A stretch of 62,230 nt of DNA, the filler included, from a bacterium (GTDB lineage Bacteria; JAMORN01): the NCBI GenBank assembly GCA_027063545.1. It is 20 parts of 20 records of this genome, joined end to end, with 100 filler letters (N's around TTAATTAATTAA, not from the genome) between each part and the next. Parts side by side here need not be neighbours in the genome. Positions count along the whole stretch, not along the records: positions 29,945 to 32,449 come from JAMORN010000342.1; 19 more parts are not named here. One strand, written 5' to 3'. The translations under genes and the position numbers were made by a program. Each line of letters starts with the position of its first letter. The stretch's first letter is position 1. The notes under the pieces were generated by a model. The model saw only the letters and a program-made list of their open reading frames with translations. It was not told where the DNA came from and ran no database searches. Shown one piece after another: positions 9,442 through 32,549 of the stretch.

Positions 9442-11139
9442 TTACTTTACTAATACTACTTTTTTTAAAATAAAATCTTTTTTATTATCTAACGCTATGA
9501 AATATATACCTGAGGATAAATTTTTCCCCGAGAATTTAATTTTGTTATAACCGAATTTTAATTTAAAAGTTTTTATAATTTTACCATTTATATTTATTAC
9601 TTTAATTACAGCATTTTTATATTTATTATATACTTCAATATTGAGTATAGGATTAAAGGGATTGGGAAAAACATTAATTGTTGTTTTTAAATTATTATTG
9701 TTTAGATTAGTTATATAAGTTGCAGAATAGAATTCATAACATCCTAGATCTACAATATTATTTACTCTTTTATTCCCATCTAAATCCAAAATTGTATCAG
9801 AAATGAAAAAATCAGGATCTCCTTTATCAATAGCAGGAGAACTCTCTTGGAGTCTAAAGTTATAAGAGGCTGTATCTATGAATAAAGGATCATCTAACAT
9901 GGAATGTTCTCCAAAAGAAGTAATGCTTCTATAATTGTCAAAATCCATAGCTATACCACCCATTTCCCATCTTATATTAGAAGGATTATCTGAATAAAAT
10001 AGATTATAGTCAAAATGATTTACCTCAATAGAATCATTTGTATAATCAGCAAATGCGATATTTTTATCTGATGTATAGATAATATTGTTGAAAATATAAT
10101 TATTTTCGGCTCTTTGAACAGTTAGTTGAGCCCATCCTACATCAGGATGAATAGAGTTTTTAAATAAAGTATTATTGTAAAAATAGCAGTTTTTTGCCCA
10201 GCCATTTTCATCAGAACTTCCACCAATTATTATACCATCTTTATTACAAAAATAAATTAAATTATTTCTAACAAAAACAGAATCAGTTATTTTATCCTTA
10301 TTCTCAGATCCAATAGAAATTCCAAAATCACCATTTTTTATAATATTTTGCTCTATTACAATCTTTCTTCCTCCATCAACATAGATAGCTGCACATGATA
10401 TATATCCATTATAAGCAGGGTTGTCTTTTGAGGTTATGTTATACAAAAAATTTCTTCTACAAACTCCATTTCTTGCTTGATCATTATAAGGTGCAACGCC
10501 CCAAAATCCAGCCATATCAATTCCAATATTATCAATATCATGAATAATATTGTTTTCTACTAAAAAACCATCAACATTACCATTTAAAGTAATAGCCTCA
10601 CTATATCCTAACTGGCAATCGTATATTTCATTCTCTTTTATTATAATATTTGAAGAGGGACTATCACCACTGTTTGCATAAACATGAATACCATGAGCTC
10701 CTTGTTTAGGGTTTTTGATATCATGAATTTTTAAATTTTCTATTATTATATTACTACAGGAGCCTCTTACTAAAACGCCTGTAGGATCTGAACCTGTAGG
10801 AGTCCCTTGAATTTCCAAATTTTTTAAAATAATAAAGTTTTGGTTATTTATTTCTATTATATAATCTCCATCTAGCCCAGTTGCATCAATTATTGGTTTA
10901 TTAATAGAATCACCAATAATGGTGAAATAAGAATTTTTAGTTCCACCTTTTGTAATATATATCATTTCATTATATATACCGGATTTTATATAAATTGTAT
11001 CTCCGGTAGAACTATTGGAAATAGCAGATGTTATTGTAGAAAAATCAGAGTTTGTATCTTTAGATACTATCCAAGTTTTAGCATAAAGATGAATAAATAA
11101 ATAATAAAAACTAATTAATATTAATAATATCTTTTTCAT
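9442..11139 (-). CDS. Secreted right-handed parallel beta-helix protein with T9SS-type C-terminal sorting domain
   Basis: Signal peptide, GDTIYIKSGIY, PbH1 repeats, SPAIDKG...DLGCYE motif, C-terminal FPNPFNP...SSGIYF...KKVVLVK. Confidence 0.85.
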   Translation of the reverse strand: MKKILLILISFYYLFIHLYAKTWIVSKDTNSDFSTITSAISNSSTGDTIYIKSGIYNEMIYITKGGTKNSYFTIIGDSINKPIIDATGLDGDYIIEINNQNFIILKNLEIQGTPTGSDPTGVLVRGSCSNIIIENLKIHDIKNPKQGAHGIHVYANSGDSPSSNIIIKENEIYDCQLGYSEAITLNGNVDGFLVENNIIHDIDNIGIDMAGFWGVAPYNDQARNGVCRRNFLYNITSKDNPAYNGYISCAAIYVDGGRKIVIEQNIIKNGDFGISIGSENKDKITDSVFVRNNLIYFCNKDGIIIGGSSDENGWAKNCYFYNNTLFKNSIHPDVGWAQLTVQRAENNYIFNNIIYTSDKNIAFADYTNDSIEVNHFDYNLFYSDNPSNIRWEMGGIAMDFDNYRSITSFGEHSMLDDPLFIDTASYNFRLQESSPAIDKGDPDFFISDTILDLDGNKRVNNIVDLGCYEFYSATYITNLNNNNLKTTINVFPNPFNPILNIEVYNKYKNAVIKVININGKIIKTFKLKFGYNKIKFSGKNLSSGIYFIALDNKKDFILKKVVLVK

Positions 11140-11153
11140 GGAGAGTTCTCCTT

Positions 11154-13004
11154 TTATTTAATAAGTAATACCTTTTTTGTTATAATTTTATTTTTATCTT
11201 TTAATTTTATAAAAAATATTCCACTAGAAAGTGTTGGTTTTTTTAAGACTATTCTATTTAACCCTGATTTTAATAATTGTTTATGAAAAATTATTTTACC
11301 CTGGATACTGTATATAGATATAGAAGCATTGTTATATAAAGTATAACATTCAATATTTAATATAGGGTTAAATGGATTAGGATATACTTTTAAAGACAAA
11401 TTTTTATTTTCAATAACATTTTTTTCTGAATTATTAGTTGGAGTTTCTTCTGGAATATATGCCTTTGCTTTATATCTTATTTGTGCAGGAATCTTTCTGA
11501 ATGAATTATTTGAAAATTCTGGTCCCCAAACAGGCCAATTCAGTTCTCCAAAAAATGAAGGATTAGAATCTTTATAATATGAATAAGGTAAATTATGATC
11601 ACTTATACTATCAGACCATTGTAGAGATCCATTTACCACGTTTCCATGAACAATTAAATCACTAGATGTAGATTTACCATACCATTCTAAATCTTTATCT
11701 GTTATTTGGTATGTTATATTTCCAATAATATTTTGAAATCTCGCATGATCTTGATAAGTAATACCATCATTGAAGACTTCAGTTTTAACCATATTTCTAA
11801 AATAAGTATTCCCAGGGCCAGCAGGACCCCAATAATCATTTATACCTATTTTATTGACAGAATTAGATTCAAATAGATTCTGATAAGAAAAATGACCATG
11901 TATTGATATATCGGGAGGATTCCAATCTTGATTAAAATTAGTAGTGTCATTATCACTTTGGATTGGATGAGTAGAATAATTATAACCATATATATTCCCA
12001 TTCGCTCCAAGATGAATAAGCATAGCGTGTCTTAAAGAATCAAAAATATTGTCTTCTATTAAACAATTTGTTGTATGAAAAGAGGAATTAACTCCATATC
12101 CATGTCCTCCACCGCCATAGTTATAGGATTTATGAAAGTAAGATTCTCTAATTTCACATCTAAAAGCTGTTTCCATATCTACATGGCTTTTGTTTGTTTT
12201 ATTACTTTCTACCCTTTTTATCCAACAATAAGCAGCATTTTTTAATAAAATAGTAGAAACATCAGTGTTTGTCTTTAAATCAATGTATAAGTTTTCAATA
12301 CCTACATACTTAACAAATCCTTGAGGTCTTATTTGGGGATTTAGATCAGATTTAAATGTATAATGTAGTGGAGGATCTATTTTTATATAGTTTTGAGATG
12401 TATTAACCTCTTTAATAACAAAAAGCTGTCCAACAGCATTTTGTGCCCAACTTTGGTTCCAATTAGAATTTGTATACATAAAAGCAGCATCATTTTCTTG
12501 TTGTATTTCTCCAAAATTTCCTATACTAAAAAGGGAAGCATCTTGTACATATAGAATACTATCACCTTTATTATAATTATATACCTCTTGCCAATCTCCT
12601 CTATTATATTTTACAATAGCAATACATGCTCCTTGATCATCTGGATCATAAAAGTGAAGTTTTGTTTTTTGATATCCATCTCCTCTTAATATTATATTAT
12701 CATATCCTATTCTTATTGTCCCTATTATTTTATAGGATCCTTCAGGAATATAAACCACACCTCCGCCATTATTATGGGCATCTGTTATAGCATCAAGTAT
12801 TGCTTGTTTTGAGTCATTTGTTCCGGATGGATCTGCACCATAGTTTATTACATTATATATTGGTCCATCGATTTGTGGTATTCCGTTTGGAATTCCTATA
12901 ATTTCATTTTTCCAATCAATTTTTCTGTCTTCTGGAATTATTTGAGAATATATAAAAGTAGTTAAGCATAGTATAAAGAGTGTTAATTTTATTATAAGTT
13001 GCAT
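11154..13004 (-). CDS. Secreted pectate lyase 3/GH28-related beta-helix protein with T9SS-type C-terminal domain
   Basis: NVINYGA...D..AI...GGGVVYIPEGSY N-terminus and C-terminal YPNPFNP...SSGIFF...KKVLLIK. Confidence 0.85.
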   Translation of the reverse strand: MQLIIKLTLFILCLTTFIYSQIIPEDRKIDWKNEIIGIPNGIPQIDGPIYNVINYGADPSGTNDSKQAILDAITDAHNNGGGVVYIPEGSYKIIGTIRIGYDNIILRGDGYQKTKLHFYDPDDQGACIAIVKYNRGDWQEVYNYNKGDSILYVQDASLFSIGNFGEIQQENDAAFMYTNSNWNQSWAQNAVGQLFVIKEVNTSQNYIKIDPPLHYTFKSDLNPQIRPQGFVKYVGIENLYIDLKTNTDVSTILLKNAAYCWIKRVESNKTNKSHVDMETAFRCEIRESYFHKSYNYGGGGHGYGVNSSFHTTNCLIEDNIFDSLRHAMLIHLGANGNIYGYNYSTHPIQSDNDTTNFNQDWNPPDISIHGHFSYQNLFESNSVNKIGINDYWGPAGPGNTYFRNMVKTEVFNDGITYQDHARFQNIIGNITYQITDKDLEWYGKSTSSDLIVHGNVVNGSLQWSDSISDHNLPYSYYKDSNPSFFGELNWPVWGPEFSNNSFRKIPAQIRYKAKAYIPEETPTNNSEKNVIENKNLSLKVYPNPFNPILNIECYTLYNNASISIYSIQGKIIFHKQLLKSGLNRIVLKKPTLSSGIFFIKLKDKNKIITKKVLLIK

Positions 13005-13102
13005 TTTTTTACCTTCTAATTTTTATATATATAGTTTAAAATAGTAATATTAAAAAGAATGGTAAATAGAAATATATAAAAAAATTATAGAAAAAATTAT
13101 AA

Positions 13103-13153
13103 AAAAAGACCTTCCTCAGAAAACAACAGAAGAGCTATGAGGAAGGTCTTTTT
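13103..13153 (-). terminator. Terminator downstream of metE
   Basis: Perfect inverted repeat AAAAAGACCTTCCTCA...TGAGGAAGGTCTTTTT. Confidence 0.7.
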
Positions 13154-13168
13154 GAAAATAGGGGGAGG

Positions 13169-15268
13169 TCAACTATACTTTTTTCTAATTATATATGCAG
13201 CCTTCATCATATTTTCTAATGAAGGTTTAACCTCTTCCCATTTTCTTGTTTTTAATCCACAATCAGGATTTATCCAGAAGTTTTCCTTTGGAATAATTCT
13301 CAAAGCCCTTTCAACTATCTCTATTATATCTTCAACCTTTGGAGTCTTTGGCGAGTGAATATCATAAACCCCAAGGCCTATTTGTCTTTTATAATTATAC
13401 TTTTCAAAAGCCTCTATTAATTCACCTTTTGATTTTGTTGTTTCAATAGATATAACATCAGCATCTAAAGCATCAATTTTATCAATTATATCACCAAACT
13501 CAGAATAACACATATGAGTATGAATTTGGATTTCTTTTGGAGCATATGAAGCTAGTTTAAATGCCTTAATAGCCCAATTAAAATACCTATCCCAATCTCT
13601 TTTTTTAATAGGTGTCATTTCTCTAAAAGCAGGTTCATCTATCTGGATTATTTTTATTCCATTTCTAATATAATCTTGAACCTCTTCTTGAAGAGCAGAG
13701 GCAATTTCATAAGCAATCTTTTCAATAGGATATTCTGGATTAACATAACTCCATGCTATTATTGTAATAGGTCCTGTTAGCATTCCTTTTACTGGTTTTT
13801 TAGTTAAACTTTGGGCATAAACTATTTCATTAATAGTCATAGGTTCAATTCTCTTGATATTTCCTATTATAATAGGAGGTCTATAAACTCTACTTCCATA
13901 GGAAATAACCCAGCCTTTTTTTGTTGTTAAAATTCCATCTAATTTTTCTGCGAAAAATTCAACCATATCAGTTCTTTCAAACTCACCATGAACTAAAACA
14001 TCAAGTCCTAATTCTTCTTGAAAACGAATAGTTTTTTCTATTTCCTTTTTAATAAACTTATCGTACTCTTCTTTTGATATCTCACCTTTTCTATATTTTA
14101 ACCTCATACTTCTAACTTCAGGAGTCTGAGGGAAACTTCCAATAGTTGTTGTTGGAAATAAAGGTAGATTTAAATAACTTTGTGCTTTTAATCTTTCCTC
14201 ATAAGATTCTCTTGTTTTTTCTGGTATTTCAAAGGTTTCTTTTTCTAAAGAAAAATTAGAAGGATTTATTTCTAAATTTTTTAAAAAATTTAATTCTTCA
14301 AGTTTTTCAATTGCAAATCTTAGATTATTTTTTATATACTCATTTTTTTCAACCTTTGTTGTTATTGGGAGTAAAAAAAGCCCGCCAGCAGATGAGATTA
14401 TTATTTCATTATTTACTTTATTTTTGATTTCATATAAAACTTTGTTAATAAATTCGCCATTTTTTGGGAAAACACTTCTTGAGTCAATTACTCCAGCAAT
14501 AATTTTTGATTTAGGATTAATTGAAGATATTATATCTAAATTTTTTATTCCCCTTATAAAATCAAATCCCCAAGCATTAACCTCTATATTTTCTATTAAT
14601 TCTGGATGATCTATACTCTCATAATATGTTATTAAATTAATTCTATCCCAATAATTTTCCAACTTTTTGTAAGTATTTAAAATTTTATTCATCTCATCTT
14701 TAGAATATTCTAAAACAAAAGCAGGTTCTTCTATGTGAAATATTGTATTTTTATATTTCTCAAAAAGTTGAGAATATGCCTTTATTAGCTTATCTAAAAT
14801 TATCTCTTCATTTCCATTTATTTTTGAGAGTTTTAGAAGGGTGTAAGGACCTATTATATAAAGAATTTTTGGATCTTTTATACCAAAAAATTCATATTTA
14901 TCCCAAGAGAATTTTATATCATCTTCCTGAGATATCTCAATTTTTATGTAATGATAATTAGTATTAAAAAATTTTTTCATAGGAAGCGCATTTTCACCTC
15001 TTGCTAAATTATAATAGTTCTCAATAGAAAAGTCTCTATAGATATTAAACATAAATCCTAGATCAAGTATAGAATCATATAAGGTTATTTCTCCCTCTGG
15101 ATAGAGATCAACATAGTTTTGATAAATAGAGAGTCTTTCACTTTCAATTTTTTTTAGATTATCAATTAATTGTTTTTCATTAATTTTTTTGTCCCAAAAA
15201 GCCTCCAGTGTTTTTTTGTACTCTCTTTCTTTTCCAAGCCTTGGGAACCCGTATGCATAAACTAACAT
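13169..15268 (-). CDS. metE: Cobalamin-independent methionine synthase
   Basis: GFPRLG, PTTTIGSFPQT, HGEFER, zinc ligands HTHMC and NPDCGLKTR. Ends in TGA used as a normal stop. Confidence 0.97.
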   Translation of the reverse strand: MLVYAYGFPRLGKEREYKKTLEAFWDKKINEKQLIDNLKKIESERLSIYQNYVDLYPEGEITLYDSILDLGFMFNIYRDFSIENYYNLARGENALPMKKFFNTNYHYIKIEISQEDDIKFSWDKYEFFGIKDPKILYIIGPYTLLKLSKINGNEEIILDKLIKAYSQLFEKYKNTIFHIEEPAFVLEYSKDEMNKILNTYKKLENYWDRINLITYYESIDHPELIENIEVNAWGFDFIRGIKNLDIISSINPKSKIIAGVIDSRSVFPKNGEFINKVLYEIKNKVNNEIIISSAGGLFLLPITTKVEKNEYIKNNLRFAIEKLEELNFLKNLEINPSNFSLEKETFEIPEKTRESYEERLKAQSYLNLPLFPTTTIGSFPQTPEVRSMRLKYRKGEISKEEYDKFIKKEIEKTIRFQEELGLDVLVHGEFERTDMVEFFAEKLDGILTTKKGWVISYGSRVYRPPIIIGNIKRIEPMTINEIVYAQSLTKKPVKGMLTGPITIIAWSYVNPEYPIEKIAYEIASALQEEVQDYIRNGIKIIQIDEPAFREMTPIKKRDWDRYFNWAIKAFKLASYAPKEIQIHTHMCYSEFGDIIDKIDALDADVISIETTKSKGELIEAFEKYNYKRQIGLGVYDIHSPKTPKVEDIIEIVERALRIIPKENFWINPDCGLKTRKWEEVKPSLENMMKAAYIIRKKYS

Positions 15269-29844: not shown

Positions 29845-29944
29845 NNNNNNNNNNNNNNNNNNNNNNNNNNNNNNNNNNNNNNNNNNNNTTAATTAATTAA
29901 NNNNNNNNNNNNNNNNNNNNNNNNNNNNNNNNNNNNNNNNNNNN

Positions 29945-30696
29945 TTAAAATATCAGTCTCAAATAATAAATAATCTAATATCTCTCTCTGGAAATTTATT
30001 GATAAGTTTAGCAAATGCTCTAATTAAATTAAAATGATTTTTTTGTTCAACTAGTCTTCAAATATTAATAAAAATAAAAGTATCATCTTTTATATTATAT
30101 TTCATTTTTAGTTCTTCAATATAACTGTAATTTACTTTATAATCCGAAATATTAAATGAATTAAAAATAACCTCAATTTTTTTAGAATCTATACCTCTAT
30201 TTATCAAATTATCTTTTAAATAACTACTAACAACTATTATTTTATCAGCTAATCTATAATTTATATTTTCTAATAATCTAGTCAATAAGTTAAAAATTTT
30301 TCATTTCTTAATGTTATTCCTTTCATATTCAAAATCATTATGAACAGAAATTACTACTTTAGTTTTTGTTAATTTCCCAATAATATTAGCAGCTAATCAT
30401 TCAATATGAGGATTATAGGCTCTTATTACATTCAAATCAAACTTTTTTACTATTCTTATTCCTTTAACAATATAATAAAATAAATTTATTAATTTACTTT
30501 TTATTTTAAAAGAAAAATATCTAAACTTTCATTTTTTCCTTACATAATTATTCTTTCATTTATACAAAAATATCCCCCTCTTTATTTTTCAATTAGGATC
30601 AAAATACAAATGAGGATATAAACATCTATTATTTTCTAAAATTTCATATTTCTCTAAAGCTTCATTAGGTATGAAAAGAATTCTTATTTCTTTCAT
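29945..30696 (-). CDS. GT4 glycosyltransferase (genetic code 25, UGA=Gly), 3'-truncated
   Basis: One frame with 8 in-frame TGA and no TAA/TAG. Reading TGA as Gly gives ADKIIVVS, FINI[G]RLVEQKN and LFII[G]D[G]. Confidence 0.9.
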
Positions 30697-31319
30697 ATTA
30701 TATAATATCATGTTCTAAAAAATTTTCACAAAATTGGCAAAGATAATATTTTCTCTTTCAATTTTTCAGATAGTCATAATTTTCACCAAAATGGAATTCA
30801 TCATACATAACCAACTTCTTTTATACTAAATCCTCAATCTTTCAAGAGTCTTTCTAAACTATTTCTAGTAAATCATCTAATATGAGTATAATCATCCCAA
30901 ATTATTTTAGGATTATATCAAGGTACCTGAATATATATTATTCATCCCTTTTTTAATAATTTATATAACTTAGAAATAACATTTAAAGGATATAGTATAT
31001 GCTCAAATACATCTAACGCAACAATTATATCATAAACATTTGTCAATTTTGCTTCTATTTCTTCATTTTCTAAATTTTTCAAAAAAATGTTATTATACCG
31101 TTTACTAGCATACTTTATTGTTTCTTTATCAATCTCTATCCCATCTATAATAATAGAATTTCAAAATATTTTTCTTAACCATTTAGCAAAACTTCAATTT
31201 CAAAATCAAAAATCTAAAATTCTCAAATTTTTAGTAATATATAACTTTTCTATCAAATAGCTAACCTTTTCTTCTGAAATATTTCTAAATTCTTCAGTAT
31301 AATAATAACTTTTTCCCAT
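30684..31319 (-). CDS. Class I SAM-dependent methyltransferase (code 25), 211 aa
   Basis: About 15 in-frame TGA. RILDF[G]F[G]N[G]SF motif I, DVFEHI, LLKKG[G]IIYIQVP, WDDYTH. Ends TAA. Confidence 0.92.
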
Positions 31320-32047
31320 TATTTCTTCTTAAGAATAAAAATAAATTTTCCAGAAAAAAAATTAATTACCGGGATACTACTAAGTAATTCATCTAAATAA
31401 TGTCAAAATAAATTTAAAGATAAAATTTTCTCTATTAATTTCTTCCTAAATAGAAAAGGAATAAGATCAAAATAATATATTTTTAAAATTTTAAAACCTT
31501 TATTTTTAAATTTATACATTAAAAATCTTTTAGAATATCCAAACTGTGGAATATCAAAAAATTTTTTTGAAAAGTAATAAGTAAACGAATATTTATTAAC
31601 AAATTCCAATATATAGATTGTCTTGCTATGTCAAATTAAATATAAATTAGATAACAATTTATCTATATCGTCAATATAATATAATGTAGAAAAAGAATAA
31701 ACAAGATCTATTCTATCTTTCAATCCTTTAACAATATTAGTATCCAAAATATTCCCTAAAATAATTTTAATATTGTTAATATTATTCTTTTCTATTTTAT
31801 CTTTTAAAATTTTTATCATATCTGGAGAAATATCTATTCAATAAATAAATCTTACTTTATCTGAAATTTGTAACGCATGATTTCAATGCCCAATTCCAAT
31901 ATCCAAAACATTATAATTTTTATTTAAATATTTATTCAAAATTTTTTGCTTTATTCTAAAATAGAGATTATTCCATTTATCCTTTTTAGCGAAATCCTTA
32001 TGATAATTTATTACTTTTTGTTCAATTATTTTATTAATTTGATTCAT
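31319..32047 (-). CDS. Class I SAM-dependent methyltransferase (code 25), 242 aa
   Basis: VLDIGIGH[G]NHA and IY[G]IDISPDMI. Joins track ORFs 31631-31819 and 31403-31609 in one frame; TAATG overlap with the next gene. Confidence 0.92.
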
Positions 32048-32057
32048 ATAATATCTT

Positions 32058-32449
32058 TTAATTACTAAAATAATAATAATTCTTTTCTACATTAGAATAC
32101 TTCTTTTTAAACTTTTTTATTCATTGCTCTTTAAGATTAGAAGGAGAATAAGCAACCCCCATTAAATCATACTTCTCTATTCCTAAATATCTTCAAAACT
32201 CCAAAGCTCATAATTGTATTAAATCACCAACAAAAAAAGTATTAGTTTTATATTTAGGTAATATTCAAGGTGCAGCAAAATGAGATATGTTATTAAAATA
32301 AAAAAAACTTGCTCATCATAATATTTCACTTTCTTTACCCTTTTTAGAAATTATTACTAAATATGAATTATTTTTCAATAATTTATACGCCTTCCTATTT
32401 ATATAATGAGGAGGTAATTGATGTCACAAATTTCTTTTATCCTCCTTTA
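32058..32449 (-). CDS. FemAB/GNAT-like acyltransferase, C-terminal part (code 25)
   Basis: EIL[GG]ASFFY...GIEKYDLMGV...EQ[G]IKKFKKKY; 7 in-frame TGA; ends TAA. Confidence 0.75.
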
Positions 32450-32549
32450 NNNNNNNNNNNNNNNNNNNNNNNNNNNNNNNNNNNNNNNNNNNNTTAATTA
32501 ATTAANNNNNNNNNNNNNNNNNNNNNNNNNNNNNNNNNNNNNNNNNNNN

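Follow-up and report, generated by a model that had tools for sequence, protein, structure and literature searches.

The reassignment of UGA from a stop to a glycine codon (translation table 25) has been known since 2013 and is established in Absconditabacteria (SR1) and Gracilibacteria (BD1-5) (Campbell 2013 and Rinke 2013, as cited in PMC8629427). The code and its hallmarks are described in passages of PMC8629427, PMC6851277, and PMC13695967, and the title of Hanke 2014 (PMC4032931), quoted in PMC6851277, claims that it has been validated by proteomics. A passage of PMC6851277 states that prfB was lost in all BD1-5 genomes, and one in PMC13695967 names the GTDB class JAEDAM01 for the clade. 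Here we consider a contig at positions 29945-32449 of a 62,230-nt window (the whole stretch of DNA analysed), for which a preliminary description had proposed a hidden minus-strand operon written in this code. Reading TGA as glycine on the contig is supported by comparison with homologous sequences, and the contig is very probably a chromosome fragment from an uncultured member of the UGA = Gly clade, a very AT-rich bacterium, and was binned with unrelated standard-code contigs. As the code was already known, the contig is an ordinary further case of it.

No difference in kind separates the contig from the table 25 clade, with which it shares UGA at glycine positions, UGG as the only tryptophan codon, UAA and UAG as stops, and a very low guanine plus cytosine (GC) content; its nearest relatives carry a tRNA(UCA) and, in three of four cases, lack release factor 2 (RF2). 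Users of table 4 (Mycoplasmatales and reduced endosymbionts) are similar in having UGA as a sense codon and an AT-rich, probably reduced genome, but differ in that UGA there encodes tryptophan, whereas the TGA columns of the contig hold Gly and almost no Trp. The situation of the contig also has a precedent in Chloroflexi assemblies, where Absconditabacteria contigs are given in a passage of PMC8629427 as the cause of false stop codon reassignments. In both cases a recoded contig lies in a standard-code bin (here one contig of 20), although the present bin is of another lineage, with a metE whose best match is at 54% and sorting domains of the type IX secretion system (T9SS) type.

Reading frames of the contig

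The window consists of 20 contigs strung together artificially; the longest has 14,067 bp and the remainder 2306-2547 bp. Every joint has 44 N on either side of a 12-base linker with stops in all six frames, identical throughout, and because the joints are artificial, frames that seem to span them are artefacts. The region singled out in the preliminary description coincides exactly with one entire 2505-bp contig bounded by joints on both sides, and its GC content of 0.201 is the minimum across the 20 contigs (range 0.20-0.30).

Translation with the standard bacterial code (table 11) gave open frames of 54-75 amino acids (aa) and nothing longer, in agreement with the earlier remark that standard translation yields short scraps only. 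Under table 25, four successive open reading frames (ORF1 to ORF4) occupy the minus strand, with 7, 4, 15, and 8 in-frame TGA codons (34 overall, matching the approximate count made previously by hand). Their 835 codons include 34 TGA, 20 GGN, and 4 TGG, TGA making up 63% of the glycine codons of the contig. TAA and TAG account for only three of the 835 codons, each of them terminal; as had been described, all three are TAA, and in-frame TAG is absent. The three plus-strand frames of the same contig contain 52-62 TAA or TAG per ~835 codons each, and the minus-strand frames are therefore open far beyond chance expectation for DNA of 20% GC. The tight junctions reported earlier were also recovered, namely a 10-bp gap (32057-32048), a TAATG overlap at 31319 in which the start of ORF3 overlaps the stop of ORF2, and a 13-bp overlap, which holds if ORF4 starts at the ATG at 30696 (the ATG at 30711 is open too). 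Frames of at least 100 codons cover 0.00 of the contig under table 11 vs 1.00 when TGA is sense, while table 11 already covers 0.70-1.00 of each of the other 19 contigs and TGA as sense adds no more than 0.04, so that the comparison of coding density across tables, proposed beforehand, favours TGA as a sense codon on this contig.

A longer copy was found in a 9627-bp metagenome contig (L001), the reverse strand of which, at L001:5469-7973, is 100% identical to the contig over 2505 of 2505 bases. Under table 11 L001 has no frame of at least 100 aa; under table 25 it has ten tightly spaced genes on one strand, with 149 in-frame TGA in 3146 codons (72% of glycine codons). Its predicted proteins contain 6.6% Gly and 1.0% Trp with table 25, vs 1.9% Gly and 5.8% Trp with table 4. 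What had been called a four-gene operon therefore stands as four tightly packed frames but not as a closed unit: ORF1 and ORF4 extend beyond the contig, which leaves ORF2 and ORF3 as the complete genes, and all four belong to a larger cluster of ten genes or more.

The lack of anything open beyond 75 aa under table 11 would also be expected if the contig held decayed pseudogenes, or were an assembly artefact, and its TGAs were true stops. Against this are the 34 TGA, with neither TAA nor TAG inside any gene across 835 codons at 20% GC, the position of the TGAs on conserved glycine columns, the alternation of TGA and GGN among relatives at the same columns, and the independent assembly of the same sequence, at 100% identity, in the 9.6-kb L001. 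Decay or misassembly is scarcely credible, being already refuted by the lack of other stops and by the column pattern.

Residues of homologs at the TGA codons

Genes were translated with X at TGA, so that alignments were not pulled toward any residue, and the TGA columns were judged on homologs from standard-code organisms. In each of three genes, Gly filled 40-61% of the cells in these columns vs a background of 3-4%, with Trp at ~0%. TGA is thus a sense codon standing where homologs have glycine, and TAA and TAG end the genes.

For ORF4, 1.84 billion representatives were searched in full with HMMER, giving 4409 matches at E<=0.001, and 144 of the 150 listed were used; one was excluded as Trp-rich itself (P0011, W 3.7%, G 1.3%) and five gave no alignment at the thresholds applied. 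Among these 144 homologs, Gly made up 50.2% of 558 cells in the eight TGA columns (background 3.7%) and Trp no more than 1% in any of them. Gly was the leading residue in five of the eight columns (56/117, 18/131, 118/143, 63/64, and 17/17), the last three counts belonging to columns 213, 246, and 248. For ORF3, a metagenome scan yielded 21 loci, 20 of which were distant homologs in standard code, free of TGA within the match. In its 15 TGA columns, 40.6% of 170 cells were Gly and none were Trp, and Gly led in seven columns, including all three glycines of motif I (columns 38, 40, and 42, with Gly in 6/6, 6/6, and 5/6 standard-code homologs).

The third gene is a UDP-N-acetylglucosamine (UDP-GlcNAc) 2-epimerase carried by L001. 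Its 120 best homologs of 8000 scored comprised 61 sequences with ordinary Trp content, 57 Trp-rich sequences, and two NCBI Candidatus Gracilibacteria epimerases, set aside because table 25 had already been applied to them. Across 20 TGA columns, the 61 standard-like sequences had Gly in 739 of 1220 cells (60.6%; background 3.1%) and Trp in none; Gly led in 12 columns and was present in at least 50 of the 61 sequences in 11. The solved Methanocaldococcus epimerase (PDB 4neq, 423.6 bits) likewise has Gly at 12 of the 20 TGA positions and no Trp. The homolog columns, put forward in the preliminary description as the place where Trp or random residues would speak against glycine, thus show Gly enriched and Trp near zero in all three genes. 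The accompanying claim that TGG still supplies Trp also held, with Trp in 18 of 19 homologs at column 141 of ORF3 and in 61 of 61 standard-like homologs at column 340 of the epimerase; two further TGG columns of ORF3 were variable.

Pfam family scores gave a similar picture, increasing from W to X to G at the TGA positions in six of seven comparisons. ORF2 scored 45.0 (W), 48.9 (X), and 58.4 bits (G) against Methyltransf_31, and ORF3 scored 50.2, 54.0, and 68.2 bits against Methyltransf_23, the G scores of both being above the family cut-off. Scores for ORF4 against Glycos_transf_1 were 22.0, 23.9, and 32.7 bits. The remaining comparison, of ORF4 with Glyco_transf_4, gave 58.0 (W), 53.5 (X), and 55.3 bits (G).

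This 2.7-bit advantage of W over G is a point in favour of TGA encoding tryptophan, as in Mycoplasmatales or reduced insect endosymbionts (table 4). Public gene callers have also applied table 4, since the ORF3 entry of a public protein collection has W for each of the 15 TGA codons, and W-rich sequences make up 57 of the 120 best epimerase matches. In these 57 sequences, W and G alternate at the TGA columns from one sequence to the next, which is the expected appearance of synonymous TGA/GGN change when recoded genes are translated with table 4. Tryptophan would moreover imply proteins of 5.8% Trp and 1.9% Gly on L001 and would replace the G-x-G-x-G of the S-adenosylmethionine (SAM)-binding motif with W-x-W-x-W. 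Six of seven Pfam comparisons prefer G, and the tRNA(UCA) of relatives has glycine rather than tryptophan acceptor features and exists beside a separate tRNA-Trp(CCA). With Trp in 0 of 1220 cells, 0 of 170 cells, and <=1% per column for the three genes, tryptophan at TGA has a negligible probability and is already refuted by the column counts.

Source lineage, decoding machinery, and the surrounding bin

Scanning one genome per prokaryote species with the epimerase gave 47 loci, the nearest being L022 (76% identity), L023 (68%), and L024 (67%). These three and L064 (40%) were the recoded loci (4 of 47), with a cover of 0.05-0.32 under table 11 and, with TGA as sense, of 0.84-0.99 overall and 0.84-0.96 in the nearest three, and the remaining 43 were in standard code. 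Record titles assign L022, L024, and L064 to Candidatus Gracilibacteria and L023 to Candidatus Peribacteria, and the named top epimerase matches in the protein search (120 best of 8000 scored) were Candidatus Gracilibacteria. The source would accordingly belong to the clade that NCBI lists as Candidatus Gracilibacteria/Absconditabacteria, and the contig would be foreign to its bin. With its epimerase at 76% identity (tblastn; 83% with Gly at TGA) to that of the nearest species representative, the source probably represents a species or genus yet to be sampled.

The genome behind L023 (G002) is clearly TGA-recoded despite its Peribacteria title (cover 0.32 with table 11 vs 0.84 with TGA sense), and its tRNA(UCA) (L107:73-151) matches the one in the Gracilibacteria-titled G003 at 100% identity; the Peribacteria record was probably given the wrong taxonomic title. 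Three of the metagenome loci with ORF3 homologs (L010, L013, and L016) also increased in cover when TGA was taken as sense (0.67 to 0.81, 0.77 to 1.00, and 0.84 to 0.99, respectively) and may come from recoded organisms too, though the matched stretches are TGA-free.

A tRNA with a UCA anticodon, assigned to SeC (selenocysteine) by the ARAGORN default, is present in all four relative genomes examined (G001-G004). In all four, this tRNA has G1:C72, C2:G71, G3:C70, and U73 in common with the tRNA-Gly(UCC) of the same genome, features that serve as the rule for calling tRNA-Gly(UCA) in the relevant passage of PMC8629427. A tRNA-Trp(CCA) is present as well in G003 and G004. In G002, G003, and G004, the sole class I release factor is release factor 1 (RF1), encoded with 7-21 in-frame TGA, and RF2 was not found. 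On the pattern of these four closest relatives and the literature, a dedicated tRNA-Gly with anticodon UCA would read UGA in the source organism, and RF2, the would-be recogniser of UGA, would have been lost, leaving RF1 for UAA and UAG. Strong AT pressure may have made TGA the main glycine codon. The share of TGA among glycine codons is 68-83% in the AT-rich relatives and falls to 33-50% in the less AT-rich G004, which fits AT pressure favouring TGA over GGN.

Several observations weigh against this account, whether against glycine at every TGA or against the assignment of the source. Epimerase columns 64 and 103 are Ser in 60 of 61 and Ala in 59 of 61 standard-code homologs, so that not every TGA stands on an ancestral glycine, and these two columns fit Gly only as a lineage-specific change among small residues. 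Several other TGA columns are variable among homologs, and Glyco_transf_4 scores ORF4 higher with W, as given above. Neither the contig nor L001 contains a tRNA gene, a release factor gene, or a phylogenetic marker, and the decoding machinery and phylum suggested for the source are those of its relatives. The placement itself draws on the similarity of one protein and on record titles, one of which reads Peribacteria. Finally, G001 (2.7 Mb, the genome behind L022) contains an RF2 gene in addition to an RF1 with 16 in-frame TGA.

The two release factor genes of G001 lie on separate contigs (RF1 at C153:10080-11129 and RF2 at C386:140349-141419), and that for RF2 has no in-frame TGA. G001 thus probably combines DNA of two organisms, one recoded and one in standard code, in a single bin.

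Some phages recode stop codons, and phages can bear glycan-modifying genes, so a short contig such as this could in principle derive from a phage or another mobile element with its own recoding rather than from a cellular chromosome. A scan of viral contigs with ORF3 gave 12 pattern matches, 0 of which were confirmed, and none of the ten genes of L001 fell in a phage family, all being counted as sugar-nucleotide, glycosyltransferase, or methyltransferase types. Partly syntenic relatives are found on contigs of metagenome-assembled genomes (MAGs) of up to 89 kb, and the RF1 genes of those genomes themselves have in-frame TGA. A mobile origin is accordingly very unlikely, and a chromosome fragment from the UGA = Gly clade remains the preferred source.

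The earlier suggestion that two codes coexist in the assembly stands in that one recoded contig is present among the 20, although this reflects a foreign contig in the bin and not the biology of an organism. Likewise, that other contigs stop at TGA was borne out for 3 of 35 frames of at least 150 codons, on just two contigs; TAA (20) and TAG (12) prevail. For all 20 contigs to come from one organism using two codes, a single assembly and a shared AT-rich composition (GC 0.20-0.30) could be cited. The other 19 are nonetheless covered to 0.70-1.00 by TGA-free frames, a few of which (the 3 of 35) end in TGA, whereas the recoded contig is the lowest in GC and has Gracilibacteria-labelled MAGs as relatives. 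The 14-kb contig, by comparison, encodes T9SS sorting-domain proteins and a metE with a Spirochaetales MAG as its best match (54%). One organism with two codes has next to no chance of being the explanation.

The T9SS C-terminal sorting domains belong to two large beta-helix-type proteins at 9442-15268 on the 14-kb contig, which adjoin metE. Among 5.8 billion proteins, the best match to metE was at 54%, and MAGs of several phyla matched at 54% and below. The main bin seems to represent a poorly sampled AT-rich lineage.

It is also conceivable that the co-binning is not accidental and that a Gracilibacteria-type episymbiont co-varied in abundance with the main-bin organism as its host. If true, the bin would point to a host-symbiont pair in which the host is itself a poorly sampled AT-rich lineage. 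We regard this as very unlikely, and similar AT-rich composition alone is a simpler cause of the co-binning.

A putative surface-glycan cluster

Based on its gene content, the contig is predicted to be part of a cluster for cell-surface glycan biosynthesis that spans at least ten genes (Table 1). The four frames are real genes, predicted to encode the tail of a family-less protein, two SAM-dependent methyltransferases, and the head of a glycosyltransferase family 4 (GT4) enzyme.

Table 1. Locations of the contig, its flanking joints, its four genes, and the genes of the longer copy L001 (positions are those of the window unless prefixed by L001).
Feature	Location	Strand	Description
Joint between contigs	29845..29944	none	N44, 12-base all-frame stop linker, N44; not biological
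Whole contig	29945..32449	none	2505 bp; GC 0.201; alone among 20 in needing TGA as sense
ORF4	29946..30696	-	First 250 codons of 385-aa GT4-family (GT-B fold) glycosyltransferase (predicted); cut by contig end; 8 in-frame TGA
ORF3	30684..31319	-	Complete, 211 aa; predicted class I SAM-dependent methyltransferase; 15 in-frame TGA; stop TAA
ORF2	31319..32047	-	Complete, 242 aa; predicted class I SAM-dependent methyltransferase; 4 in-frame TGA; stop TAA
ORF1	32058..32447	-	Last 129 codons and TAA of 364-aa gene; start beyond contig; 7 in-frame TGA
Joint between contigs	32450..32549	none	N44, 12-base linker, N44
L001 gene 1			Glycosyltransferase tail
L001 gene 2			Membrane protein, no family
L001 gene 3			Cytidylyltransferase fused to GFO/IDH/MocA oxidoreductase
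L001 gene 4			Glycosyltransferase
L001 gene 5			Protein with alpha/alpha-barrel-type matches
L001 genes 6-9	ORF1, L001:4766-5860; ORF4, L001:7222-8379		Full-length ORF1 (364 aa), then ORF2, ORF3, and full-length ORF4 (385 aa)
L001 gene 10	L001:8382-9470		UDP-GlcNAc 2-epimerase; Epimerase_2 368.8 bits

ORF2 and ORF3 are predicted class I SAM-dependent methyltransferases, judging from a Rossmann-like domain and a Gly-rich motif I. The third Gly of this nucleotide-binding motif is encoded by TGA in ORF2, as are all three in ORF3, and PDB methyltransferases align G-x-G-x-G to the motif I of ORF3. ORF4 is predicted to be a GT4-family, GT-B fold glycosyltransferase with an N-terminal Glyco_transf_4 and a C-terminal Glycos_transf_1 domain: with G at TGA, the fragment on the contig scores 55.3 and 32.7 bits against these families, respectively, and the full-length protein 54.0 and 120 bits. 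For ORF1, no family was found in Pfam with X, G, or W at TGA, nor in NCBIfam, and the full-length protein matched no Pfam family at E<=0.1 and, up to E<=5, only a capsid family at chance level (E 0.13). A resemblance of ORF1 to FemAB-like acyltransferases gained no support from any search.

Other searches with the contig's proteins returned little. ORF4 gave 149 pattern matches and 0 confirmed ones in species-representative genomes, and a single weak match in the PDB (E 0.017), with Ser at TGA column 213. ORF3, with X at TGA, had two matches only in a word-indexed protein collection, one being the contig's own protein. Public entries (P0009 and P0163-P0215) hold this ORF3 and the L001 epimerase in table 4 translation, with W at every TGA.

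The cluster resembles surface-polysaccharide and teichoic-acid-like clusters, which have GT4 glycosyltransferases, a WecB-type UDP-GlcNAc 2-epimerase, and a cytidylyltransferase, in its tight, same-strand array and in the gene types of L001. These include three GT-B glycosyltransferases, two SAM methyltransferases, a cytidylyltransferase-oxidoreductase fusion, and an Epimerase_2 protein. It differs from known surface-polysaccharide clusters in that none of the contig's four proteins matched an NCBIfam model at its cut-off and in that ORF1 is without a family. In L022, gene 4 (71%), gene 5 (77%), and the epimerase (83% under table 25) occur in the same order as on L001, but ORF2-ORF4 are missing, so that the contig's genes fall where the cluster varies. 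Outside the recoded clade, the L001 epimerase is nearest to Methanocaldococcus and other archaeal enzymes (57-60% identity; L026, L063), and nearer to these than to most bacterial ones, which may reflect an old inter-domain transfer.

The contig has a single CGG codon (31098-31100, codon 74 of ORF3), and L001 has two CGG, one CGA, and one CGT vs 94 AGR. The homolog column at ORF3 codon 74 is variable and polar (Q 6, N 2, K 2, R 2, H 1, and no W). CGG = Trp is reported for Absconditabacteria in a passage of PMC8629427 and has been proposed for some Gracilibacteria as well.

The value of these results is mainly practical, concerning annotation hygiene, rather than conceptual. The contig belongs out of its bin and is to be annotated by table 25, as table 11 gives no genes and table 4, as used by public pipelines, puts Trp in the place of 34 Gly, some of them in the SAM-binding motif. 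Mistranslations of this kind are widespread among public proteins (57 of the 120 closest epimerases of 8000 scored) and can mislead homology searches and structure prediction for the clade. For the lineage itself, the predicted cluster would add a variable surface-glycan locus to organisms for which little is known of the cell envelope or of contact with hosts.

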